A stretch of DNA of 20,095 nt from a bacterium (GTDB lineage: Bacteria; Bacillota; Clostridia; TANB77; RGIG9151): positions 1-20,095 of the forward strand of contig CAVHFU010000026.1 of the NCBI GenBank assembly GCA_963635575.1, in the 5' to 3' direction. The position numbers and the translations under genes are program-made. Shown one piece after another: positions 2,082-20,095 of the stretch. The first letter of the stretch is position 1, and the number at the start of each line of letters is the position of its first letter. The notes under the pieces are model-generated. The model made no database searches and had not been told where the DNA came from. It was given only the letters and a program-made list of their open reading frames with translations.

Positions 2082-3089
2082 TGTTTTCACCTTTTTCTAT
2101 GTCTAAATATAAATTTATTTCCTCTTCTGTTGGTAATTTATCTAGTAATTCTTTCGGTAATTGTTCTTTTAATTCATAAGTCGAAACACCAATAGGAACA
2201 TTTGTGGATTTTAAAGACCAATCTACCGTTACTCTATTTTTTCCTCTACATAATAATAAGCCAATCGTAGGTGTATCACATTCTTTTTTTATTGTTTCAT
2301 TAACTGCTGTTACATAAAATCCTAATTGTCCTATATATTCTGGTTTAAATTCACTTGCTTTTAATTCGACAACTACATAACACCTAAGTTCCAAATGATA
2401 AAATAGCAAATCAATATAATAATCTTGATTATCAACTGAAATTTTGTATTGATTACCGACAAATCTAAAGCCTTTTCCTAATTCTAGCAATACATTTCTT
2501 ATTTTAGTTATTAAAGCTGTTTCCAATTCTTTTTCTTTATATTCTTCTTTTAATGTAATAAAATCAAAAATATATGGATCTTTTATGGTATTATTCACTA
2601 AATCACTATCTTTTGGAGGTAACATTGCATTAAAATTATTGTTACTATTTCCTATTCTTTTATGAAATTCTGTTTCAATTTGAATAGCTAATATATTTCT
2701 ACTCCACCCATTTTTAATGGTATTTTCAGCGTATATTCGTCTAATATCTTTATTTTAATTTTTTCAATTAATAATAAATTATGTCCCCAAGGTAATTTGG
2801 CAACAAGTTGTTGCCACTTTTCATCATCAGCATATTCTTCATAAAATAATCTCATTGACCTTATGTTTCTTTCAGAAAAGCCCTTCATATTAGGAAAAGT
2901 TAATTTAAGTTCTGTTGACACTTGTTTCGCAAAATTATTTCCATATTGTTTGTTTTCTGAAACAATTTTTCCCAATTTAAAATACAACATAATTAAATTG
3001 CTATTGACTTCTTGCATAGTTTTAATTTGCGTATTTATAATTTCTTCTTTAATATTACTAATAATATCTTTAAAATTCTTTTCTAACAT
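2074..3089 (-). pseudogene. YhcG/DUF1016-family PD-(D/E)xK nuclease gene, split by a 1-nt frameshift into ORFs 2688-3089 and 2074-2625
   Basis: The N-terminal ORF (..SERNIRSMRLFY..LPWGHNLLLIEKIK) matches the DUF1016 N-domain. The C-terminal ORF carries the nuclease core (IDLLFYH..VVVELK). The bridge reads in the +1 frame as NKDIRRIYAENTIKNGWSRNILAIQIETEFHKRIG.., the conserved family linker. The frame change maps to the A4 run at 2753-2756 (T4 on plus). The restored product would be about 337 aa, typical of the family. Confidence 0.8.
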
Positions 3090-3459: not shown

Positions 3460-4116
3460 CTAGTTTTCTTCCTTCGGTATCATATCTAATAAAGAATAGA
3501 AAAACATTAGTAAACAGCTTGATATAATTATGCCACCTATTATGTCAGTAAGCCAATGTACACCAGAAATTAGCCTTCCGACAACAGTTAGTGTAAGTGC
3601 AATAATTAATATGTAATTAATAAGTTTTGTCAATTTATTATGAAACTTTTTTTTATTCACTAAAACACCACTTCCGCAAATAAAAATCGCCATTAATGTA
3701 TGTGAAGATGGATAAGATGCTTCTAGTAGTCCGTCAATTAATGTTGGCCTATAATTAATAATTACTTTTTCAAAAAATACATATAAAGCCACTACTGCAA
3801 CATAAAATGCACCAAGTAGCATAATTTCTTTATCTACCTTTAAAAGGCTTTTCCTTTTTACTAATTGAACAAAGCCAATAATTGCAAATGCCATAACCGT
3901 TAAAACAGGAACTACTTCTAGATAATGTGTAATGTCGTACCACATCATATTTACGCCTGTTGTCTCAAACACAAGTTGATTAGATGTAGCAAACCCAATG
4001 TTTGTCCCATTTACACCTACTGCTTTTACATCTACTGTTTTAACTAAAATTGTAAAAACTATTGCCACTAAAAGCAATATACCACTAATAATAAAATTTT
4101 TTCTTTTGTTATCCAT
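3460..4116 (-). CDS. PAP2-superfamily membrane phosphatase (phosphatidic acid / undecaprenyl-PP phosphatase-like)
   Basis: 218 aa with several hydrophobic helices and the three PAP2 motifs: K..YRP, SYPSSHT and GRLISGVHWLTDIIGG (SRx5Hx3D-type). SD AAGGAG lies 8 nt upstream of ATG 4116. Confidence 0.82.
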   Translation of the reverse strand: MDNKRKNFIISGILLLVAIVFTILVKTVDVKAVGVNGTNIGFATSNQLVFETTGVNMMWYDITHYLEVVPVLTVMAFAIIGFVQLVKRKSLLKVDKEIMLLGAFYVAVVALYVFFEKVIINYRPTLIDGLLEASYPSSHTLMAIFICGSGVLVNKKKFHNKLTKLINYILIIALTLTVVGRLISGVHWLTDIIGGIIISSCLLMFFYSLLDMIPKEEN

Positions 4117-4184
4117 AACGAGCTCTCCTTAATTTTCTAGGTAATTAATCTTTTTACCTTGTTTAGTCGCATACTCTACTTTTT

Positions 4185-4430
4185 CTATTCACTGACACTT
4201 TTTATGTCCTGTAACTCGAATCTATATTTTTGTTTTACATTTGGATACTTTTCGTGATCCACTTCGGACGCAAACATATCGTATGGTCTTACATATAGCC
4301 CTGTGTCCCCATATAAAGCTCTATACACCACATATCTTTCTCTTGTTTCGCTATGTATAGCAATCCCCTCCACAATATACAAGTTTCCCTTAAAATGCTT
4401 ATAAATTGAATTAACTCTTATTTCATTCAT
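4185..4430 (-). CDS. DUF1653 domain-containing protein
   Basis: 81 aa matching the remembered DUF1653 consensus closely: [51 protein letters not shown]. Confidence 0.8.
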
Positions 4431-4458
4431 CTTTGTTCGCCCCTTAAATCCAAAATTC

Positions 4459-7050
4459 CTATAACTGTTCTTTTAACTTGTATAAAGTATTTAACGCATC
4501 TATCGGAGTAATTCCGTTTAAGTCTAATTTCTCCAATTCAGATGCAATCTTTGTACCTTTATAGTTGAACATATCTACTTGTCCCACAACAGCATTAGAC
4601 TTCTTTATATCTTTAGTATGCTTTTTACTTATATCCGCATCCTCTAATTGCTTTAATACTTCTTTAGCTCGATTCACAACAGCAAACGGAACACCGGCTA
4701 ACTTAGCAACATGAATACCATAGCTACCGTCAGCTCCTCCACGAATAATCTTTCTTAGGAAAATTACATCATCGCCCTTTTCCTTAACCGAAATGCAATA
4801 ATTTTTAACTCCTGTAATTTTATTCTCTAGTTCAGTAAGTTCGTGATAATGGGTAGCAAATAAAGTCCTAGACTTTAGCTTTTCACTTATATGTTCAACA
4901 ACAGACCAGGCGATGCTGAGTCCATCAAATGTACTTGTACCCCTACCTATTTCATCCAAAATAACTAAACTTCTGTTAGTAGCATTATTTAGGATATTAG
5001 CCACTTCTGTCATCTCTACCATAAAAGTAGATTGTCCCATAGCCAGATCATCTGATGCTCCAACCCTCGTAAAAATCCTATCCGCCACACCAATTTTCGC
5101 ATAACTTGCCGGAACGAAACTTCCTATCTGAGCAAGTAATACAATTAGTGCTACTTGACGCATATATGTAGATTTACCTGCCATATTAGGTCCGGTTAAT
5201 ATATCTATTTCATTTTCTTCAAAGTCCAAAAACGTATCGTTTGGGACAAATTCACCAGATGACAAGCATTTCTCTACAACAGGATGTCTGCCATCTTTAA
5301 TGTCAATTATGCCCGAATTATCTACAATAGGCTTCACATATCCATTTTTCTCAGCAGTTTCTGCTAGTGACACCAAAGTATCTGTCTGTGCAATAATAGA
5401 TGCAATTCTTTGTAACTTTTCAACCTGAGATGCAACATATTCTCTTACCTTGCAAAACAATTCATACTCCAGCACTATTATTTTTTCTTCTGCACCCAAA
5501 ATCGTTTCTTCAATTTCTTTTAATTCTTCGGTAATATATCTTTCTTTATCTGATAAAGTCTGTTTTCTTATATATGTAGGTGGAACTAAATCAAAATAAG
5601 ATTTTGTTACCTCTATATAGTACCCAAACACTTTATTAAAGCTAACTTTTAGGCTTTTAATACCTGTTTTTTCACGTTCTCTTGCCTCTATCTCAGCAAT
5701 TATAGACTTACCGTTAGTTCCGGCATATCTTAACTTGTCCACTTCATCGTTATAACCGGTCTTAATAATATTTCCGTCTTTTGTGCTAATCGGCGGTTCA
5801 TCAACAATAGCCTTGTCTATTATATCTACAACATCTTCTGCTAATTCCAAATTATCGTTTAGTTCATTTAATAGTTGATTATCAAATTGAGCCAAAATTT
5901 CTTTTACCTCAGGTAATTTCATTAATGAAAGCTTTAATGCAACTAAATCTCTGCCGTTTGCACTACCATATACAACACGTCCGCTAAGACGCTCTATATC
6001 ATAAATCTTATTTAATTTTTCAATTACATCAGACCTTAAAATAGGATTATTTTTAAGTACCTCAACCGCGCTATTTCTCTTATTAATTTTATTCACATCA
6101 ATAAGAGGTCTCTCTAGCCAACTATGTATCATTCTTGCTCCCATAGCCGTATTTGTATTATCAACTACCCACAGTAACGTACCCTTTCTGTTCTTTTCGC
6201 GCATTGTTTCGGTAATTTCCAAGTTACGTCTTGTAGACATATCTATGCTCATATACTTTTCTGACTCATATACATCTAAATTATTTATATGCTCCAAATT
6301 AGCCTTTTGGATTTCAGAAAGGTATCTAAGTAGCGCACCTGTTGAAATATATGCAAGTGAAAATCTTTCTTTATTTTCACTAAAATTCTCAATATGCTTT
6401 TTTATTAAAGTAATAGCCTCGCCCCTGTCAAAGAACTCATCTTCTGCCATAGAGATAAAACTGTTAAATCTCTTCCTAATTGAGCTTATTTCTGCTTCTT
6501 CATAAAATAGTGCTGAATTTACAACAATTTCAGATGGTTTTATTCTAGCTAGTTCATCAATCAAACTCATAAAGCTTCCGCCACCTAAAAACTCGGTGCA
6601 AGAAATCTCACCGGTGGTAACATCCGCACTTGCCAGACCAAAATTAATACCTAATTTATATATAGCACAAATGTAATTATTATTCTTTTCATCAAGCATT
6701 ATACTGTCTATAACTGTACCCGGTGTAACAACTCTTATTATGTCACGCTTAACCAGTCCTTTAGCAAGTCTCGGGTCTTCCATTTGTTCACAAATAGCGA
6801 CTTTATGTCCTTTTTTAACCAGTCTTGATATATATGTCTCCGCAGCATGATAAGGAACGCCACACATTGGTGCACGTTCCTCCTGTCCACAATCTTTTCC
6901 GGTTAGTGTAAGTTCGAGTTCTCGAGATGCCAAAATAGCATCATCGAAAAACATCTCATAGAAGTCTCCTACTCTAAAAAACATAATAGAATCTTTATTT
7001 TGTTCTTTCATCTCTAAATATTGCTTCATCATCGGTGTCATTTCTGCCAT
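4459..7050 (-). CDS. mutS: DNA mismatch repair protein MutS
   Basis: 863 aa. N-terminal mismatch-binding block [26 protein letters not shown], Walker [14 protein letters not shown], Walker [14 protein letters not shown] and FATHYHEL. Confidence 0.97.
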
Positions 7051-7071
7051 TTTTTCTATTCTCCTTCTAGC

Positions 7072-8856
7072 CTATCTACATCTACTTTCTCTACTTCTTT
7101 GATTAACTTTAGGAAGTTCTTCACTTAGTAATTTTATTTTTTCAGCATTATCTCCAAAACCTTTTATATATTCTTTGTATTTTCCTTGTTCAGCCTCAGT
7201 CTCGGGATATGTTTTACTCTTCTTTCCATTTGCTATACATTGCTTTAAATAACCGCTTCTATCCATTTCCAGTTGTGCCATAAGCTTATTTACATCAGGT
7301 ACTGTCAAAAATTCAGTAAAAAAATCATGCTTACTATCGCGTGTCAAAATCTTGGCTGCTTTTAAAATCTGTGCAATTTTAGTAACTTCCTCATTGCCAA
7401 ACTCATTCTTTTTACCCTCTTCTACCGTTTTATTCTTCATAAAACCTTCAAATCGATTAAAGTACAATGCATCAATTACTTCATCTATATCAGCTTTTTC
7501 ATTAAAAGCCCTATTTTCATAATTTTCTTCACTTTCAAAAGCGTCATAAATACTAATAAGAGAATTAGCAAAAAGAATTCTTCTGTTTTTCATATCTTTT
7601 TCCAGTATTTCTCTTGTTCCTCTTATATGACCGCCTTCTCTTAACAATTTATCTGCAATTTTGTTAAATGTACAACCATTTTCAAACCTAACAATTGCAT
7701 TAACTTGTGACTTAAGTTCGCCATTTACCTGCTTTTCATCTTCAAGTAGCATTTGCGACATATTCATTTCTTTAGCAAATCTTATACATTCTGTCTTATC
7801 CTTGGCTTTTTCGTTAAAATACTGTTCCATACCATTTAAGTAATCTAATAAAGTATTCGCACCAAATCTACCCGCAATCTTCTTATATTCCTCTTCATTA
7901 GACTGAGCTATTAGCGGACACATTACCTCATAATAAAATTTTGTGCAATTGCTATACTCTTGGTGTAATAAAATAGTATTTCCGATTTTTCTATCTAATG
8001 AATAATATTTACGCATAATGTTTCTGCCATCTTCTATCATCTGCTCAAACACTTGCTCTAAATCTTTTTTCTTTCCATTTTCATTATAAACTTTTTGAAG
8101 TATAGGGTAATTATATAAAGTTTTGGGATATCTCTTTACATACAAATCACACATTCCCCTAAAAAATGTATCGCGGTTTTCCATTTTTCCTTTTTCATAT
8201 ATTTTACCAATTTTTGAGTTAGTAAAGCTAATATCGTTAGCCTCTTTTATCTTTGAAATTATATCTTCCGGAATATCTCCACAAAGCAAATCAGACATAT
8301 TAAATCTTCCCCAAATGTCCGCATACGCCTCAGAGGTTAATCTATCATAATTAAAATCATAAAAAGACTCATCGGCAGCTGATTTTAACACCATTTCGTA
8401 TGCCATCTCCAAAACTTCCGGTCTTAATCTGCTACGATTTATAAAAGTTTTTTGCTTAGAATGTTCAACTTCGTGATAGATAGAAAGTAACATATCGCTT
8501 AAGCCTAAAATTCTTTTTTCCTTATCACCGGACCTAAAAAACTTTTGGTAAAAATACTCAACATTAATCCATATACAAGTATCTTTAGTTATGTCCTCGG
8601 CCTCGCTAGAAAAACCTAATGTACCTTCTTCGTCATCAATTTCTTCATTGTCTAAACTATGTAAAGTCTCATCATTCTCTTGAAATTCCAATTCAATTCT
8701 GTATGCTCCACACTCAAGTTCAGCCAATTCTTTAACTGACGTCTTTAGCATATTAAAATCTTCCTCGTTTAAAGGTCTCTCATTTAAAATATCCGCAAGT
8801 CTTTTTACAATCTCTCTTTGTTTTTCTTCATTCCCCTTGATACTAACGCTTTCCAC
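7072..8856 (-). CDS. Hypothetical 594-aa cytoplasmic protein with a zincin-like HExxH motif (function unknown)
   Basis: GTG start at 8856 preceded by GGGGGA 8 nt upstream. It lies 25 nt after the miaB stop and 21 nt before the mutS start. HEVEH is encoded at 8461-8475 (residues 128-132), with a candidate third ligand in SEAYAD (E176). Residues about 60-92 are acidic. No signal peptide or TM segment is visible and I recognise no family. Confidence 0.7.
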   Translation of the reverse strand: MESVSIKGNEEKQREIVKRLADILNERPLNEEDFNMLKTSVKELAELECGAYRIELEFQENDETLHSLDNEEIDDEEGTLGFSSEAEDITKDTCIWINVEYFYQKFFRSGDKEKRILGLSDMLLSIYHEVEHSKQKTFINRSRLRPEVLEMAYEMVLKSAADESFYDFNYDRLTSEAYADIWGRFNMSDLLCGDIPEDIISKIKEANDISFTNSKIGKIYEKGKMENRDTFFRGMCDLYVKRYPKTLYNYPILQKVYNENGKKKDLEQVFEQMIEDGRNIMRKYYSLDRKIGNTILLHQEYSNCTKFYYEVMCPLIAQSNEEEYKKIAGRFGANTLLDYLNGMEQYFNEKAKDKTECIRFAKEMNMSQMLLEDEKQVNGELKSQVNAIVRFENGCTFNKIADKLLREGGHIRGTREILEKDMKNRRILFANSLISIYDAFESEENYENRAFNEKADIDEVIDALYFNRFEGFMKNKTVEEGKKNEFGNEEVTKIAQILKAAKILTRDSKHDFFTEFLTVPDVNKLMAQLEMDRSGYLKQCIANGKKSKTYPETEAEQGKYKEYIKGFGDNAEKIKLLSEELPKVNQRSRESRCR

Positions 8857-8881
8857 TAACTTTATCCCCCGCTCTTTTAAG

Positions 8882-10285
8882 TTATTGTACTTTTATTTTC
8901 CCCGTTAAATACCACTTTCTCTGCTCCGTAATTTCTAAATCTATCATATTTCCAATAAGTTCATCCGAACCTTCAAAATTAACGACCTTACCGCCGTCTG
9001 TTCTTCCGGTTAATGTATTCTCATTAGTCTTACTATGACCTTCAACCAAAACTTTTTGAACTGTTCCTACTAATTTTGCATTCTCTTCTTCTAAAATTTC
9101 ATTAACAACATTAATAAGTCTTCCGATTCTCTCAGTTTTTATCTTCTCATCTACTTGGTCCTCCATTCTAGCCGCTGGAGTTCCTTCTCTCTTTGAATAT
9201 ACAAACGTAAATGCTGAATAATATCTTACCTTCTTTACAACATCCATTGTATCTAAAAAGTCTTCTTCAGTTTCGCCAGGGAAACCAACAATTATGTCCG
9301 TTGTAAACAATACATCGGGAATTTTATTTCTTATTTTTTCAACTAAGCTTAAATATTGTTCCTTTGTATACTTTCTATTCATTCTTTTTAGAATACTACT
9401 GCTACCAGATTGCAATGGTAAATGTAGACATCTAGAAATCTTTGGCTCTATTGCTATCAAATCAATTAGCTCGTCTGAAAAATCCTTAGGATGAGGACTA
9501 ACAAATCTTATTCTCTCAATTCCCTCAATCTTAGCCACTTTTTCTAAAAGTTTAGCAAACGACATAGGGTTCTCCAAATCTTTACCATAAGAATTTACAT
9601 TCTGACCAAGCAAAGTAATTTCCTTATATCCGTCTTTGGCTAACTGTTTAACCTCTTTAACAATATTCTCAGGTTCTCTGCTTCTCTCTCTTCCTCTTAC
9701 ATACGGCACTATGCAATATGAACAAAAATTATTGCAACCATACATAATAGTAACAGACGCCTTTATATTGCTATCTCTTTTAATCGGCATATCCTCGGCA
9801 ATCGTGCCATCAATATCCCAAATTTCAATAACCTTCTTTTCCTCAGTTATAGATTTATACAAAAGTTCAGGAAATTGATATAAATTATGCGTACCAAAAA
9901 TTATATCTAAATGCTGTCCATGAGTCTTATTAAACTTTTCAACCATATGAGGCTCTTGTGCCATACAACCACCAAGAGCAATAACCATATCCGGTTTACT
10001 ACGCTTTAATGACTTAAAGTATCCCAACTGTCCTAAAATTTTATCCTCAGCATTCTCTCTAACACAGCAAGTATTAAAAATAACTAAATCTGCCTCTTCA
10101 AGCGCTTCTGTAGCCACATAGCCCATTTTTTCTACCATACCCGAAATCTTCTCAGACTCGTTCTCATTTAATTGGCATCCCATCGTAAAAAGATGATACT
10201 TTTTCCCCTTAACTAAATGAGTTAATTTTTCAATATATTTGTTTTGTTCATCAATTTCCTCTGCCTTTAAAACACGAATTGCCAT
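8882..10285 (-). CDS. miaB: tRNA (N6-isopentenyl adenosine(37)-C2)-methylthiotransferase MiaB
   Basis: 467 aa. UPF0004 N-domain with TMGCQLNENESE, IFGTHN, radical-SAM cluster CNNFCSYCIVPYVRG, and a C-terminal TRAM-like domain. GCQxN and FGTHN favour MiaB over MtaB or RimO. Confidence 0.9.
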   Translation of the reverse strand: MAIRVLKAEEIDEQNKYIEKLTHLVKGKKYHLFTMGCQLNENESEKISGMVEKMGYVATEALEEADLVIFNTCCVRENAEDKILGQLGYFKSLKRSKPDMVIALGGCMAQEPHMVEKFNKTHGQHLDIIFGTHNLYQFPELLYKSITEEKKVIEIWDIDGTIAEDMPIKRDSNIKASVTIMYGCNNFCSYCIVPYVRGRERSREPENIVKEVKQLAKDGYKEITLLGQNVNSYGKDLENPMSFAKLLEKVAKIEGIERIRFVSPHPKDFSDELIDLIAIEPKISRCLHLPLQSGSSSILKRMNRKYTKEQYLSLVEKIRNKIPDVLFTTDIIVGFPGETEEDFLDTMDVVKKVRYYSAFTFVYSKREGTPAARMEDQVDEKIKTERIGRLINVVNEILEEENAKLVGTVQKVLVEGHSKTNENTLTGRTDGGKVVNFEGSDELIGNMIDLEITEQRKWYLTGKIKVQ

Positions 10286-10329
10286 CTCTACACCCTTCCA
10301 ACCTCTATATTTCAGCTTTCAATTATCTT

Positions 10330-11757
10330 CTACTTTAATCTTTCTAAAATTAACTTATTAATAACCTGTGGATTAGCTTTTCCACGACTTTCCTTCATTA
10401 CTTGCCCTACTAAAAATCCTACAACATTAGTCTTACCACGTTTGTAATCCTCTATTGATTGTGGGTTATTAGCAATAACTTTATCCACCATTTCTAAAAT
10501 AGCAGACTCATCACTAACCTGTGCAAGGCCTTTTTGGGCAATTATTTCCGAGACCTTTTTGCCGGTAGCCAAAATTTCCTCAAATACAGTCTTACCTGCT
10601 GTATTACTAATAGTGCCTTTAGTAATTTCTTTTATTAACTCAGCCAAAGTTTCAGGACTTATTTCAATTTCATTAATAGAAATCTCTCTTTCATTTAATA
10701 CCTTAGAAATATCCCCTAAAACCCAGTTACTTGCCGACTTAGGCACAGCACCGAAAGAAACTACTTTATCAAAATATTCAGACATTTCTTTGCTAGATGA
10801 AATAAGTTCAGCATCGTACTCTGTCAACTTATATTCTGTTAAATACCTAGCTTTCTTTACATCAGGAAGCTCCGGCAAATTCTTTCTAATATCTTCTATG
10901 TATTCTTTAGTTAAAACTATTGGTACTAAATCCGGCTCTGGGAAATATCTATAATCTTGAGCGTTTTCCTTAGTTCTCATAACAACGCTTTCGTCTTTAT
11001 CTTCATCCCATCTTCTAGTTTCTTGATGTATTTCTCCGCCATTTTCTACTACTTTAATTTGTCTCTTAATCTCAGTATCAATAGCATGTCCGGTTGCACT
11101 AAATGAGCTTATGTTCTTCATTTCAGTTCTCATACCGAATTTGTCTGAACCTTTGGGCATAATTGAAACGTTAACATCACATCTTAGTGAACCTTCTTGC
11201 ATTTTACAATCAGACACTTCTATGTATTTTAATATAGTTCTAATCTTTTCAAGTAGTGCCTTAGCTTCATCAGAATTTCTCATATCCGGCTCAGTTACAA
11301 TTTCAATAAGTGGAACTCCGCATCTGTTCATATCTACTAATGTACCATTGCCCCAAGCATTATGAAGTAACTTTCCGGCATCTTCCTCTATGTGAATTCT
11401 TGTAATTCCGATTCTCTTAGTTGAACCATTTACCTCTACATCCAAGTAACCATTCTTACAAAGTGGCAAATCATATTGAGAAATTTGATATGCCTTAGGT
11501 AAATCAGGATAAAAATAGTTTTTTCTATCTTGTTTGCTAAATAGTGAAATTTCACAATTCATAGTAAGTCCGGCCTTTACCGCATATTCAACAACTTTTT
11601 TATTCATAATCGGCAATGTACCAGGCATACCTGTACATATTGGACAGCAATGTGTATTTACATCGCCCCCAAATTCTGTTGTACAATTACAAAATATCTT
11701 AGTCTTTGTAGCTAACTCTGAATGTATCTCTAAACCTATAACACTCTCGTATTCCAT
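10330..11757 (-). CDS. gatB: Asp-tRNA(Asn)/Glu-tRNA(Gln) amidotransferase subunit B
   Basis: Begins with the canonical MEYESVIGLEIH.EL.T.TK.FC and continues HIEEDAGK and a YqeY-like tail. Start placed at ATG 11757, where AGGAGTGAG lies upstream and overlaps the gatA stop. The ORF-track start at 11790 would overlap gatA. Confidence 0.95.
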   Translation of the reverse strand: MEYESVIGLEIHSELATKTKIFCNCTTEFGGDVNTHCCPICTGMPGTLPIMNKKVVEYAVKAGLTMNCEISLFSKQDRKNYFYPDLPKAYQISQYDLPLCKNGYLDVEVNGSTKRIGITRIHIEEDAGKLLHNAWGNGTLVDMNRCGVPLIEIVTEPDMRNSDEAKALLEKIRTILKYIEVSDCKMQEGSLRCDVNVSIMPKGSDKFGMRTEMKNISSFSATGHAIDTEIKRQIKVVENGGEIHQETRRWDEDKDESVVMRTKENAQDYRYFPEPDLVPIVLTKEYIEDIRKNLPELPDVKKARYLTEYKLTEYDAELISSSKEMSEYFDKVVSFGAVPKSASNWVLGDISKVLNEREISINEIEISPETLAELIKEITKGTISNTAGKTVFEEILATGKKVSEIIAQKGLAQVSDESAILEMVDKVIANNPQSIEDYKRGKTNVVGFLVGQVMKESRGKANPQVINKLILERLK

Positions 11758-11767
11758 ATTCTCACTC

Positions 11768-13195
11768 CTACTCTTCACACTTACGTGCAACTCTTAAAAT
11801 TGTCTTTTCATCAAAAGCTTTACCTATAATCTGAATACCTATTGGAAGTCCTTTGCTATCCTTTGCAACAGGTACAGAAATTGCTGGAACACCGGCAATA
11901 TTTACAGGAACTGTACAAATATCTGATAAATACATTTCGAGTGGATTCTCAAACTTTTCACCAATCTTAAAAGCTGTTGTAGGAGCAGTTGGTCCTATGA
12001 TAACATCATACTTACTAAAAGCTTTATTAAACTCATTTATTACCAAAGTTCTAGCCTTTAGTGCCTTTTTATAATAAGCATCATAGTAACCTGAACTTAA
12101 AACATAAGTGCCAAGCATAATTCTTCTCTTTACTTCCGGACCAAATCCTTCACTTCTACTATTTTCATATAAATCATTTAATGTATCTGAGTTTTTACTT
12201 CTATATCCGTACTTTACTCCATCAAATCTAGACAAATTTGAACTTGCCTCTGCTGAAGATAAAATATAATAAATAGACAAAGCATAATCAACTATCGGCA
12301 TTGAGAACTCTTCAACAATAGCTCCCTTGCACTTTAATTCTTCAACCTTTTTCATAATAGCTTCTTTTACTTCCGCATTAATTCCTTCTCCAAAGAATTC
12401 ACGAGGAAGTCCAATTTTTAAGCCCTTTATACCATCATTTAAGCCTTCTGTATAATCGGTAATTCCTGTATCAACAGAGGTTGCATCACTGTCATCCCTA
12501 CCGGAAATAGCATTCATAACTAAAGCACAGTCAGTAACATCCTTTCCAAAAGGTCCGATTTGGTCTAATGAGGATGCAAAAGCAACAAGACCGAATCTAG
12601 AAACAGTTCCATAAGTAGGCTTTAATCCAACAATACCACAAAAAGATGCAGGTTCACGAATAGAACCACCTGTATCAGAGCCAAGTGAAATTAGAGCTTC
12701 ATCAGCAGCAACTGCGGCAGCAGAACCGCCACTAGAACCGCCCGGCACACATTCAGCATTGTGTGGGTTTGTAGTCTTGTAAAAAGCTGAATTCTCAGTA
12801 GAACCACCCATTGCGAACTCATCTAAGTTAGTTTTACCAATTAAAATACATTTGTTTTCATTTAGTTTTTCTATAACAGTAGCATTATACGGAGGCACAA
12901 AATCCTCAAGCATCTTAGATGCACAAGTTGTTTTAACTCCCTTTGTACAAATATTATCTTTAATCGCAACAGGAATACCAGCTAAAACCGGCATATCCTT
13001 ACCGGCATCAAACTCAGCTTGAATTTCTTCAGCTTTCTTTAATGCATTTTCTTTATCTAAAGAAATATACGCCTTAACCGTATCTTCTCTTTCTTCAATT
13101 CTCTTAAAAACAGACTCAACTACCTTCGGAACAGTAGTTTCTTTATTTCTATACATCTTCGCAAGTTCATGCGCAGTATATTCATACAATTCCAT
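11768..13195 (-). CDS. gatA: Asp-tRNA(Asn)/Glu-tRNA(Gln) amidotransferase subunit A
   Basis: 475 aa with the amidase signature [24 protein letters not shown] and the gatC-gatA-gatB order. Confidence 0.96.
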
Positions 13196-13241
13196 AATCT
13201 TCTTCCTTTCTTATAGTAAAAAGTTGATTCTCTTAAGCCTT

Positions 13242-13523
13242 CTACTGAACACTTGGTACAACCAAACAACCAGCCTCTTTAACAGGTGCATTTGCTATAA
13301 TATCATTTCTATTATACGAAGGCTTTACTTCGTCTTCTCTCATCACATTTTGCACCTTTAAAATGTGATTTGTAGGTTCAACATTTTCAGTATCTAATTC
13401 GCTTATCTTATTAGCAAACTCAACGATTCCGTCCATTTGATGTGTTAATGTTTCCATTTCACTTTCAGGTATTTTTAGCTTTGCAAGTTTAGCAACATAC
13501 TCAATATCCTTATTAGTTATCAT
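13242..13523 (-). CDS. gatC: Asp-tRNA(Asn)/Glu-tRNA(Gln) amidotransferase subunit C
   Basis: 93 aa from ATG 13523 (MITNKDIEYVAKLAKLKI...), the typical GatC N-terminus. GGAAGGA lies 8 nt upstream. This start overlaps the 3' end of the upstream glycosyltransferase gene by 11 nt. The ORF-track start at 13544 is an unlikely extension. Confidence 0.88.
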   Translation of the reverse strand: MITNKDIEYVAKLAKLKIPESEMETLTHQMDGIVEFANKISELDTENVEPTNHILKVQNVMREDEVKPSYNRNDIIANAPVKEAGCLVVPSVQ

Positions 13524-14658
13524 CTTTATTATCCTTCCCCTCATACAACTTTAAAATTCTATCAACAATCTTTGCACCGGCCTCTAAATCCCTAAATGCA
13601 AGTTGATTTTTTCTTATCTTTATAAATCTCTCTTTATCATTTACAATAAGCTTGTTTACGGTCTTAGCCAAGTCATTTGGCTTAGTGCAAAGAAGCCCTA
13701 AATCATTTAATAAAATAAAATCTATATTTCCTTCTTCTTGACCAGGAAGAGCACCTGTAATTATAACCGGTAAAGTACAAGTAATACACTCCATAAGTAC
13801 ATTAGGGCTACCCCTAACAATTCCAACATCATTAGTAGTCATAAGAGTTTCAACATCTTTAACATAACCATAAATCGTCACTCTATCTAATTGGTTTCTA
13901 AACTTAACTTCTAAAGTCTCCTTTAGCTTTGTATTTCTTCCGGCAACAGCAGATATTCTGGAATTAGGAATCTTAAGCAATCTTTCAATCGTAGCTCCCA
14001 TATCTCCAGAGCCTTCTCCACCACTCATAATTAAGAAATCTATATTTTTCTTTTCACGAATAGCCTTATCGTCTATCATTTTTATTTTTGCACCGGCTTT
14101 TAATATTTCTTTTCTTACAGGAAGATTGATAATAGCCATTTTTTCTTCATCCGCGCCATTTTTAATAGCATATACCCAAGCTGATTTTGTAGGTGCAATC
14201 ATTAAGTCAGCTCTAGGCTCAATCCAAAGTGGAGAAATAGAAATCAAATCAGCAAATACAGCAGCAAACTTGATTTTTTTCTTTCCTTTTCTTTCCTCAA
14301 GTAAGTCCATAACCGCATTATTAAATGCAGGGTGAACTGTGACAATAATATCCGGATTAAACTCGTCAACTAATTTATAAAACTTTCTCTTTATTATTCT
14401 TTTTACTACACTCTTTACTAAATGAGGTTCTGTTGCTGACATAGCATAAATAAATTTCCACATATCTTCGGAAGTTCTGATTATTGGTGCATACATTTTG
14501 CCAATTCTAAGTCCCATCTTACCTCCAAATTCAAATGCCTCGACAGACTTAAATTCAACATCTTTATACTTGCTAAGTTCTACCTCTAGGGCATTAGTTA
14601 TACTTTTATGTCCATGTCCTGTAACATATGATGTCAAAATTAATACACGTTTTTTCAT
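13513..14658 (-). CDS. MGDG-synthase-family (GT28-like) glycosyltransferase, probable diacylglycerol glycosyltransferase
   Basis: 381 aa. The N-terminus KRVLILTSYVTGHGHKSITNALE resembles the MGDG_synth/UgtP N-domain. The C-terminal half is GT-B like (GGEGSG.., ITGALPGQEEGN). SD GGGGGAG is upstream. Confidence 0.72.
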   Translation of the reverse strand: MKKRVLILTSYVTGHGHKSITNALEVELSKYKDVEFKSVEAFEFGGKMGLRIGKMYAPIIRTSEDMWKFIYAMSATEPHLVKSVVKRIIKRKFYKLVDEFNPDIIVTVHPAFNNAVMDLLEERKGKKKIKFAAVFADLISISPLWIEPRADLMIAPTKSAWVYAIKNGADEEKMAIINLPVRKEILKAGAKIKMIDDKAIREKKNIDFLIMSGGEGSGDMGATIERLLKIPNSRISAVAGRNTKLKETLEVKFRNQLDRVTIYGYVKDVETLMTTNDVGIVRGSPNVLMECITCTLPVIITGALPGQEEGNIDFILLNDLGLLCTKPNDLAKTVNKLIVNDKERFIKIRKNQLAFRDLEAGAKIVDRILKLYEGKDNKDDN

Positions 14659-18400: not shown

Positions 18401-20095
18401 ATGAGATTAAAAATTACAAAAACAAATTCAGATACAAATTACTACATCATAAAAGATGTTACTAAGAACGGAAAAAGGACTACTCAAATATATGAAAAAC
18501 TCGGAAACATTAAGTGCATTTCTGAACGTGCTAATGGCGAATCACCTTTAGAGTGGCTTAATAAATACATAGAGAGTCTAAATAATGAACTGAAAAAAGG
18601 TAATGAAAATGTTGTAATAAAAAAATCAACTTCTTCATTATTGGAAAAAAATGTGCAAAATTCTTTTAATATTGGTTATGTGTTTTTACAAAAAATTTAC
18701 AATGCATTAAAACTAAATGAAATTTGTAAAAATATTTCTCAAAAATATAAATTTGAATATGACTTAAACTCAATTCTTTCAAGATTAATATATACAAGGA
18801 TTTTAGAACCTTCTTCCAAACTTTCTTCTTTTGAATCTTCTAAAAATTTTTTAGAACAACCTAATTTTGGACTCCATCATATTTACAGAGCTTTAGAAGT
18901 TATTGCTAAGGAAACTGAAAATATTGAAGCTGAGGTCTACAAAAATAGTTTAGATTTGGTTAAACGTAATTCTAAAATTTTGTATTATGACTGTACTAAT
19001 TATTTCTTTGAAACAGAACAACCCGAAGGAATTAAGCAGTATGGGGTATCTAAAGAACATAGACCTAATCCAATTGTTCAAATGGGCTTATTTATGGATG
19101 GAAATGGATTTCCTCTCGCTTTTTCAATAAACTCAGGAAATACAAATGAACAAATTACATTGAAACCTTTAGAACAAAGAATAATTAAAGACTTTGGATT
19201 ATCTAAATTTGTTGTCTGTACTGATGCTGATTTAGCTTCTAATGAAAATAGAATTTTTAACAATATGCAAAATCGTTCCTTTATTGTTACTCAGTCGCTT
19301 AAGAAAATTAAAGGTCACCTAAAAGAGTGGGCTCTTTCTCCTGAGGGATGGAGGAAAAATAATTCTAAAAAAGTTATAAATTTAGAAAACATAGACATCA
19401 TGTCTAATAATGATGATGTATATTACAAAGAACGTTGGATTAAAGAAAATGGCTTAGAACAAAGGTTAATAATTTCTTACTCACCTAAATATGCCGCCTA
19501 CCAAAAAGCCATTAGGAATTCTCAAATTTTAAGAGCACAAGAATTAATAAATAACCCTTCTAAAATTTCAAAAAGTAGACAAAACGATCCTAAACGTTTT
19601 GTTACTTCTAAAAGTATTACTGCTGATGGTGAAATTACTGAAAAAAGAGTTGTTTCCTTAAATGAAACTGCCATTAAAGATGAAGAAATGTTTGATGGCT
19701 TTTATGCTGTTTGTACCACCCTTGAAGATGACATTAGTGAAATTATTAAAGTAAATAAACGCAGGTGGGAAATTGAAGAATCTTTTAGAATCCTAAAATC
19801 TGAATTTAAGGCTAGACCTGTTTACTTAAAAAATGATGACAGAATAAAGGCTCATTTTACTATTTGTTTCCTTTCGCTAGTTGTTTACAGAATTTTAGAA
19901 AGCAAGTTAGAGAATCAATATACTAGCCATGAAATTATATCGAGCCTAAGAAATATGAATTTATTAAAAGAACAAACATCATATATTCCAACTTATACAA
20001 GAACTGATATAACAGATTTATTACATGATAAATTTGGGTTTAGAACTGATTATGAAATACTAAACAAGAAATATATTCAAAAAATATTAAAATAA
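18401..20095 (+). CDS. IS1634-family (IS4-related) DDE transposase
   Basis: 564 aa, uninterrupted. The N-terminus is of the type (M.LK.TK.....Y..I......GK......LG) typical of IS1634-like transposases. DDE candidates are YYDCTNYFFE, VVCTDADLAS and RRWEIEESFRILKSEFK (the Y-R-E-K block). The stop codon is the last triplet of the window. Confidence 0.88.
   Translation: MRLKITKTNSDTNYYIIKDVTKNGKRTTQIYEKLGNIKCISERANGESPLEWLNKYIESLNNELKKGNENVVIKKSTSSLLEKNVQNSFNIGYVFLQKIYNALKLNEICKNISQKYKFEYDLNSILSRLIYTRILEPSSKLSSFESSKNFLEQPNFGLHHIYRALEVIAKETENIEAEVYKNSLDLVKRNSKILYYDCTNYFFETEQPEGIKQYGVSKEHRPNPIVQMGLFMDGNGFPLAFSINSGNTNEQITLKPLEQRIIKDFGLSKFVVCTDADLASNENRIFNNMQNRSFIVTQSLKKIKGHLKEWALSPEGWRKNNSKKVINLENIDIMSNNDDVYYKERWIKENGLEQRLIISYSPKYAAYQKAIRNSQILRAQELINNPSKISKSRQNDPKRFVTSKSITADGEITEKRVVSLNETAIKDEEMFDGFYAVCTTLEDDISEIIKVNKRRWEIEESFRILKSEFKARPVYLKNDDRIKAHFTICFLSLVVYRILESKLENQYTSHEIISSLRNMNLLKEQTSYIPTYTRTDITDLLHDKFGFRTDYEILNKKYIQKILK

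Follow-up and report, generated by a model that had tools for sequence, protein, structure and literature searches.

The stretch of DNA analysed here, 20,095 nucleotides (nt) from a bacterium of the GTDB lineage Clostridia, TANB77, RGIG9151 (GenBank assembly GCA_963635575.1, contig CAVHFU010000026.1, positions 1 to 20,095 of the forward strand; referred to below as the window), raises the question of what kind of protein sits between miaB and mutS. The open reading frame (ORF) at this position encodes a product of 594 amino acids (aa), labelled X throughout, which carries an HExxH motif. The evidence inclines us, with some reserve, to read X as a chromosomally captured member of a conjugative-element family, combining a gluzincin-like zinc peptidase with a C-terminal helical module and probably active in the lineage of the window. 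This reading draws on the near-invariance of the catalytic signature across a large family, on the predicted topology of the N-terminal half, and on homology over almost the whole chain to proteins encoded by a conjugative element.

X is a real gene under purifying selection, because the ratio of nonsynonymous to synonymous substitution rates (dN/dS) against its orthologues is 0.09-0.2 across all regions, its N-terminus is kept in these orthologues (MESVSIK or MQTVNI), and its GC content (0.316) and GC content at third codon positions (GC3, 0.25) are the same as those of its neighbours. Recent horizontal acquisition was rejected on the same equality of GC and GC3. The gene and its start signal are placed as follows.

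7072..8856, minus strand: gene X, complete ORF of 594 aa with a GTG start and orthologues in loci L001-L011.
8865..8870, minus strand: Shine-Dalgarno-like GGGGGA, 8 nt upstream of the GTG of X, read directly from the sequence.

An earlier note, made from the letters of the window alone, had taken X for a genuine gene with this ribosome-binding site, separated by 25 nt from the miaB stop and by 21 nt from the mutS ATG with no terminator in between, and the dN/dS values, the conserved start and a scan of the junctions confirm it. No terminator-like or promoter-like site was found at the miaB-X or the X-mutS junction, and across positions 4000-14000 such sites occur no more often than they do once the sequence is shuffled. 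The acidic N-terminal segment and the absence of membrane or export signals that it described were likewise recovered: residues 56-100 carry a net charge of -15, and no hydrophobic stretch, transmembrane segment or signal peptide was detected in X (maximum Kyte-Doolittle value for a 19-mer, 0.41). X would accordingly be placed in the cytoplasm, as a two-part protein.

The first part is marked by residues that scarcely vary. In alignments at about 18% identity (A2 and A4), H128, E129, H132 and E176 are invariant columns; Y257 is invariant in a 46-sequence alignment, and overall 176 of 182 sequences have Tyr there; Q135, Y166, N169, A179, K264 and Y308 are near-invariant. When all retrieved proteins were aligned with hmmalign, the H-E-H-E set was kept in 174 of the 175 wider-family sequences covering the site, and E176 in 179/179 wider-family sequences and in 12/12 sequences of the slot clade, the close relatives of X that lie in the same miaB-mutS slot. 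An HExxH motif is expected by chance 0.008 times in a protein of the composition of X; the motif alone is weak evidence, to which conservation throughout the family adds. In X the motif reads HEVEH (residues 128-132), and E176 follows 44 residues past H132.

8461..8475, minus strand: HEVEH (H128, E129, H132), putative zinc ligands and general base.
8329..8331, minus strand: E176 (in SEAYAD), putative third zinc ligand.

Residues ~50-270 would thereby form a zincin-type metallopeptidase domain in which H128, H132 and E176 hold the zinc, E129 activates water and the segment around Y257 probably lines the active site. From conserved residues of this kind X may be expected to bind zinc and to hydrolyse peptide bonds, with E176, on its position in the model described next, as the candidate third ligand.

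A first AlphaFold2 (AF2) model drew on 9 sequences and was poor (predicted local distance difference test, pLDDT, 65), and its Foldseek matches were dismissed as meaningless. The model built on 121 sequences is confident (pLDDT 87.3, predicted template modelling score 0.82). It starts with helices 2-26 and 31-50, followed by strands 56-59, 81-85 and 93-97 and the HExxH helix 112-140; then come helices 146-160 and 163-172, the E176-bearing helix 174-190 and a hairpin at 218-227, after which the chain is all-helical to residue 580. The three strands ahead of the active-site helix are predicted to supply the mixed beta-sheet, edge strand included, that zincins require, and helix 31-50 stands in for the flanking helix at the N-terminal side of the core. 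The modelled topology is that of the zincin-like metallopeptidase (MPTase) core of mobile elements, which consists of an N-terminal helix, a three-stranded sheet, the HExxH helix and, set apart from the latter by variable inserts, a Glu helix (PMC5512222). Motif conservation and predicted topology together strongly suggest a gluzincin-type protein, without a significant match to a known zincin, and the gluzincin layout proposed in the earlier note (HExxH with a Glu 44 residues on) gains support from both. The model and the alignments divide the chain as follows.

8707..8856, minus strand: residues 1-50, N-terminal helical hairpin (helices 2-26 and 31-50), AF2 pLDDT 94-96, with the N-terminus conserved in the wider family.
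8287..8706, minus strand: residues 51-190, predicted zincin core with inserted helices at 146-172, from AF2 and the invariant H128, E129, H132 and E176.
8581..8679, minus strand: residues 60-92, acidic insert between strands 1 and 2/3, of low confidence (pLDDT 63-71) and poorly conserved.
7762..8175, minus strand: residues 228-365, helical subdomain, pLDDT 90-98, with the superfamily motif L..YPILqK.YN.dG.kK (containing the near-invariant Y257) and FYYE (Y308).
7117..7737, minus strand: residues 374-580, C-terminal all-helical module, the most conserved part of the protein.

The C-terminal module carries the motifs NAIVRFxNG, LLREGGxIRGTRE, ANSLIxxYDAxESE, DIDEVxxALYxNRF, IPDVN and YPxTEAExGKY. 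It is a helical module without known relatives and would probably bind a substrate or a partner.

The relatives of X came to light through profiles. With the single sequence of X as the query, Pfam, NCBIfam, PADLOC and the sequences of PDB gave no match at any E value up to 10, and PHROGs gave two non-significant ones (E 0.25 and 1.7), which upholds the claim that it belongs to no known family. A word-indexed search of 5.8 billion proteins with X as the query returned only nine clusters, at 34-100% identity, and the same kind of search with the A2 alignment returned nothing beyond the close clade. An exhaustive hidden Markov model (HMM) search with the alignment of the nine clusters found 212 representatives at E<=1e-3, including 66 at E<=1e-10, most of them covering positions 8-370, some full length and some covering 425-556 only. 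Judged by these profiles, X belongs to an unnamed family of gut Clostridia with more than 200 clusters at 50% identity. In some other proteins the C-terminal module is present without the zincin half, and a Pfam scan of ten proteins having this module only found no partner domains.

One of the relatives, P0169 (819 aa), is encoded in a run of genes on one strand that also specify PrgI, a VirB4-like ATPase, a sortase and a CHAP protein, that is, in a Gram-positive conjugative element with a type IV secretion system; this integrative and conjugative element (ICE) is common, since dozens of indexed contigs carry P0169. The alignment of the slot clade to the ICE-type proteins by hhalign has a probability of 99.8% and an E value of 3.4e-30 and spans X 19-574, so that the C-terminal module is common to the ICE proteins too. 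Another relative, P0213, lies in an island with ThiF, amidoligase and DUF2779 genes. Two further features of these loci were observed. In one metagenome the ICE carrying P0169 contains an rve-type insertion sequence (L013 4879-6263), absent from the otherwise identical L014 and L015 of two other metagenomes. Directly ahead of the wider-family gene, both in the ICE (L013 7849-7995) and in the unrelated setting of the amidoligase island (L017 7856-7984), lies a tiny ORF of 48 aa or 42 aa, which could be there by chance or be a conserved small partner.

A history compatible with this distribution would have the family normally reside in gut Clostridia on genomic islands and conjugative elements, from which one copy would have been captured into the variable miaB-mutS junction of a narrow lineage of uncultured Clostridia and then inherited vertically. 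In the subclade of the window, X is most likely an active zinc-dependent endopeptidase, predicted to have a specific cytoplasmic protein target, because all its catalytic residues are intact and constrained.

Several observations weigh against the capture of an active peptidase from a conjugative element. No known peptidase family gives a significant HMM match to the family of X, and a whole-chain Foldseek search of PDB and BFVD with the confident model yielded nothing at E<1e-3, a query in which a small zincin core may be hidden; since neither HMM nor Foldseek gives a significant match, the zincin assignment rests on motif invariance and predicted topology. Phage and plasmid collections searched by tblastn (queries X, P0049 and P0169) contained no match, nor did IMG/VR when scanned with A6. 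The mobile context of the family comes from one ICE (three near-identical loci) and one island, the other wider-family members having uninformative chromosomal contexts, and the direction of transfer, from element to chromosome, would be read from distribution only. The remaining points come from the slot clade itself, in part of which the peptidase half has been damaged or lost. In the second of its two subclades (clade B), P0008 reads HEVDY, the second His being replaced; P0009 and P0012 (~365 aa) start near residue 230 and have the N-terminal domain deleted; and P0013 and P0159-161 (~296 aa) begin with 'MQTV' and then jump to ~residue 265 and ~318, through in-frame internal deletions. Because clade B mutates or deletes the HExxH domain in these ways, proteolysis is not what retains the gene in the slot everywhere.

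Clade B also holds intact forms (P0007, P0010 and P0011) and a 193-aa N-terminal fragment (P0021) with S-L-x-x-Q at the HExxH positions. Each short gene is complete and fits closely between its miaB and mutS neighbours, and the C-terminal module is the only part left in the truncated orthologues; in the tree, the bootstrap values that bear on the number of independent domain losses are 50 or less. Over long evolutionary range, the C-terminal block 386-565 retains 52-58% identity, compared with 22-27% for the N-terminal part. Because the truncated forms keep it, and because of this difference in identity, the module that is obligatory in the slot is the C-terminal one, not the HExxH core. This had escaped the earlier note, as had the relatives with HEVDY or without the N-terminal domain. 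That note had made its zincin proposal depend on profile and structure searches and on conservation of the motif; no characterised family was matched, and the HExxH is conserved among the wider family and lost in part of clade B.

The same facts invite the explanation that X is non-catalytic, a binding or scaffold protein acting through its C-terminal module, whose HExxH domain is a remnant being lost in the lineage of the window as elsewhere. The unequal conservation of the two halves, the two truncation architectures and the H-to-Y change in clade B with the module kept in the same slot, and the occurrence of the module alone in other proteins are all in its favour. However, the subclade of the window (clade A, bootstrap 100) consists of six clusters that are all full-length with H-E-H-E intact, dN/dS in their N-terminal domain is 0.11-0.17, similar to the rest of X, and the motif is invariant in the wider family. 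We consider this explanation unlikely.

An origin on mobile elements also opens the possibility that X is a domesticated or selfish conflict gene, concerned with exclusion, immunity or defence against related conjugative elements, with the truncated forms serving as decoys for the target of incoming homologues. Such a role would be in keeping with the full-length homology to ICE-borne proteins, the island with amidoligase, ThiF and DUF2779 genes, the fast evolution of X relative to its flanks, the zeta toxin found in the same slot of an outgroup, and the frequency of zincin domains in mobile-element effectors (PMC5512222). Yet PADLOC and PHROG models matched no defence or phage family in any member (the only two, isolated and weak, were to unnamed families and came from one short form), X is a single gene without partner genes, integrase or repeats, its inheritance is stably vertical and its composition host-like, and in every region dN/dS lies well under 1 and, at this resolution, gives no hint of an arms race. 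This explanation is given the same low weight as the loss of catalysis.

We attach a comparably small probability to a third explanation: X may be a conjugative-element effector amid domestication, whose C-terminal module has, since capture into the miaB-mutS operon, gained a host function without proteolysis, for example immunity or exclusion by sequestering the target of incoming homologues, or a role coupled to MutS in a clade that lacks an adjacent mutL. If true, this would explain why relatives shed an otherwise invariant zinc-peptidase domain yet keep the tail.

The location of X points to a different kind of explanation, namely that, as an accessory factor particular to this lineage, it assists mismatch repair (MutS) or the ms2i6A modification of tRNA (MiaB). 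Its immediate neighbours are the following.

8882..10285, minus strand: miaB, upstream neighbour of X, a UPF0004 / Radical_SAM / TRAM methylthiotransferase (by the Pfam domains of its orthologue), with 79-99% identity across the clade.
4459..7050, minus strand: mutS, downstream neighbour of X, with domains MutS_I-V in the L011 orthologue, 70-99% identity across the clade.

The genes gatC-gatA-gatB-miaB-X-mutS lie on one strand throughout, and X is probably read through together with gatCAB, miaB and mutS; the co-transcription with miaB and mutS that the earlier note expected is thus supported as probable by the tight gaps and the absence of terminator-like sites. Every member of the slot clade, down to 34% identity, has the strict order miaB-X-mutS with gaps of 14-25 nt, its hosts being without exception metagenome-assembled genomes of uncultured Clostridia or 'Eubacteriales', and mutL is not downstream of mutS in the clade; these features, with the junctions free of terminator-like sites, speak for a functional partnership. 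Against it, the synteny reflects one ancestral insertion of X, inherited vertically within collinear flanks, and therefore does not testify independently to a coupling with MiaB or MutS. Among 80 outgroup miaB loci (L021-L100, MiaB identity 48-60%), mutS is next on the same strand in 56, at a gap of 6 nt to 2.8 kb, and none has an X homologue at miaB; the slot is empty (gap 6-60 nt) or occupied by unrelated genes for a YlbF/YmcA (RicA)-family protein, a zeta toxin, an mTERF-like protein or a SulP-like transporter (examples are L046 4705-5085, L022 7622-8494 and L035 7339-7899). None of the more than 200 wider-family members with retrieved context stands beside miaB or mutS. X also evolves much faster than its flanks, with 39% identity in L009 where MiaB has 83% and MutS 78% (78-83% for the neighbours), and no MutL, GHKL or SprT-type domain was detected in X (Pfam and NCBIfam, E<=10). 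In all, no evidence of a functional tie of X to MiaB or MutS was found, and we rate this explanation below the preceding three. The earlier note was right that the miaB-mutS gap is a variable slot. Linkage of the homologues to miaB and mutS holds within the narrow slot clade and fails in the wider family, and the link to tRNA modification or mismatch repair that the note had suggested is left unsupported by the distant homologues in ICE and islands and by a synteny that goes back to one ancestral insertion.

As a separate candidate, X as a substitute for MutL or SprT was rejected, for want of any domain signal and given that the third candidate ligand conserved here is Glu, whereas that of SprT-like proteins is His. 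Around the same operon, a gene for a HipA_C protein (HipA-like kinase toxin) lies between gatB and miaB in a relative at 70% identity (L001 7655-8512, L002 1796-2653); since it is absent from the window, the operon has a second variable junction. Downstream of mutS in the window (3460-4430, minus strand) come genes for a DUF1653 protein (81 aa) and a PAP2-family membrane phosphatase, mutL not being adjacent, and in the relative L011 T2SSF and pilin genes follow mutS.

That the HExxH...E site is a metal-dependent hydrolase centre for some other amide, ester or phosphoanhydride bond is very improbable: significant matches to peptidase families are lacking, no solved structure comes near the overall fold and some zincin-fold proteins are not proteases, but motif and topology are as in proteolytic gluzincins and the only weak echoes come from peptidase families.

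Elsewhere in the window, a YhcG/DUF1016 PDDEXK nuclease gene is present as two ORFs 62 nt apart (2688-3089 and 2074-2625, both minus strand), encoding DUF1016_N (133 aa) and YhcG_C (183 aa); the pair may be a pseudogene broken by a frameshift or else a split gene, and the GC3 of the YhcG_C part is only 0.12, well below that of its neighbours. At 18401-20095, on the plus strand and so opposite to the train of housekeeping genes, a DDE_Tnp_1 transposase ORF continues past the last letter of the window and is at least 564 aa long.

In the captured-peptidase reading, X is a predicted enzyme from uncultured organisms and belongs to a superfamily that is already known. Its family is sizeable and nameless in every database, and it pairs a near-invariant zinc-peptidase signature with a second conserved helical module; the data suggest a new, unnamed family inside the known zincin superfamily, with an unprecedented second module. 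The catalytic site is invariant on mobile elements and dispensable in part of a chromosomal clade, a natural separation of the two halves. The locus also provides a caution, in that a tight, conserved order beside mutS and miaB is here no evidence of functional coupling.

Among known systems, four invite comparison with X. DUF6782 ('putative metallopeptidase') is the only recurrent Pfam signal, found in 6 of 56 wider-family members and falling on the HExxH helix; unlike true members, these relatives score below threshold (11-16 bits against a gathering score of 27, over 30-60 residues; best 15.7 bits, E 0.0068-0.17), X itself has no match, and a literature search for DUF6782 found no papers. 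The M3 oligopeptidases (oligopeptidase A / thimet-type) share with the family a helix consensus FHExxHxxQ resembling tvFHEfGHalQ of 4ka8, a Glu as third ligand and a cytoplasmic location, and the active-site helix of 4ka8 is the best PDB sequence echo of the A2 profile (E 0.04). Unlike a true M3 relationship, the match is limited to this helix, has no counterpart in the fold and is gone when PDB is searched with a deeper profile (A5), and the HExxH-to-Glu spacing of X is 44 residues. In M3 peptidases this spacing is ~25 residues.

YmcA/RicA (Com_YlbF) resembles X in position: it is the usual gene downstream of miaB in Bacilli and in many Clostridia, as seen in the documented ymcB(miaB)-ymcA operon of B. 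subtilis (PMC2952846) and in the outgroup loci. Unlike RicA (PF06133), whose slot proteins in the outgroups are ~126 aa long and end in the Cys cluster CxxxCxxCGGCH, X is unrelated in sequence and has no C-terminal Cys cluster. The C-terminal module as a RicA/YmcA relative was rejected, the hhalign probability of A3 against A7 being 0.2%.

The mobile-element MPTases (Iyer et al. 2017, PMC5512222), for example the C-terminal domain of ArdC, are unlike X in several respects. X has neither ArdC-N nor other polyvalent partner domains, and MPTase-PolyVal, ArdC and LPD Pfam models match neither X nor 56 relatives, which leaves carriage on an ICE as the sole link; its zincin domain is N-terminal in a fixed two-part architecture, and the copy in the window is chromosomal, in a housekeeping operon. 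They have in common with X the three-stranded sheet, the HExxH helix and the later Glu helix with variable inserts, and with its family the location on conjugative elements of Firmicutes, a cytoplasmic setting and the joining of the peptidase to uncharacterised helical domains.

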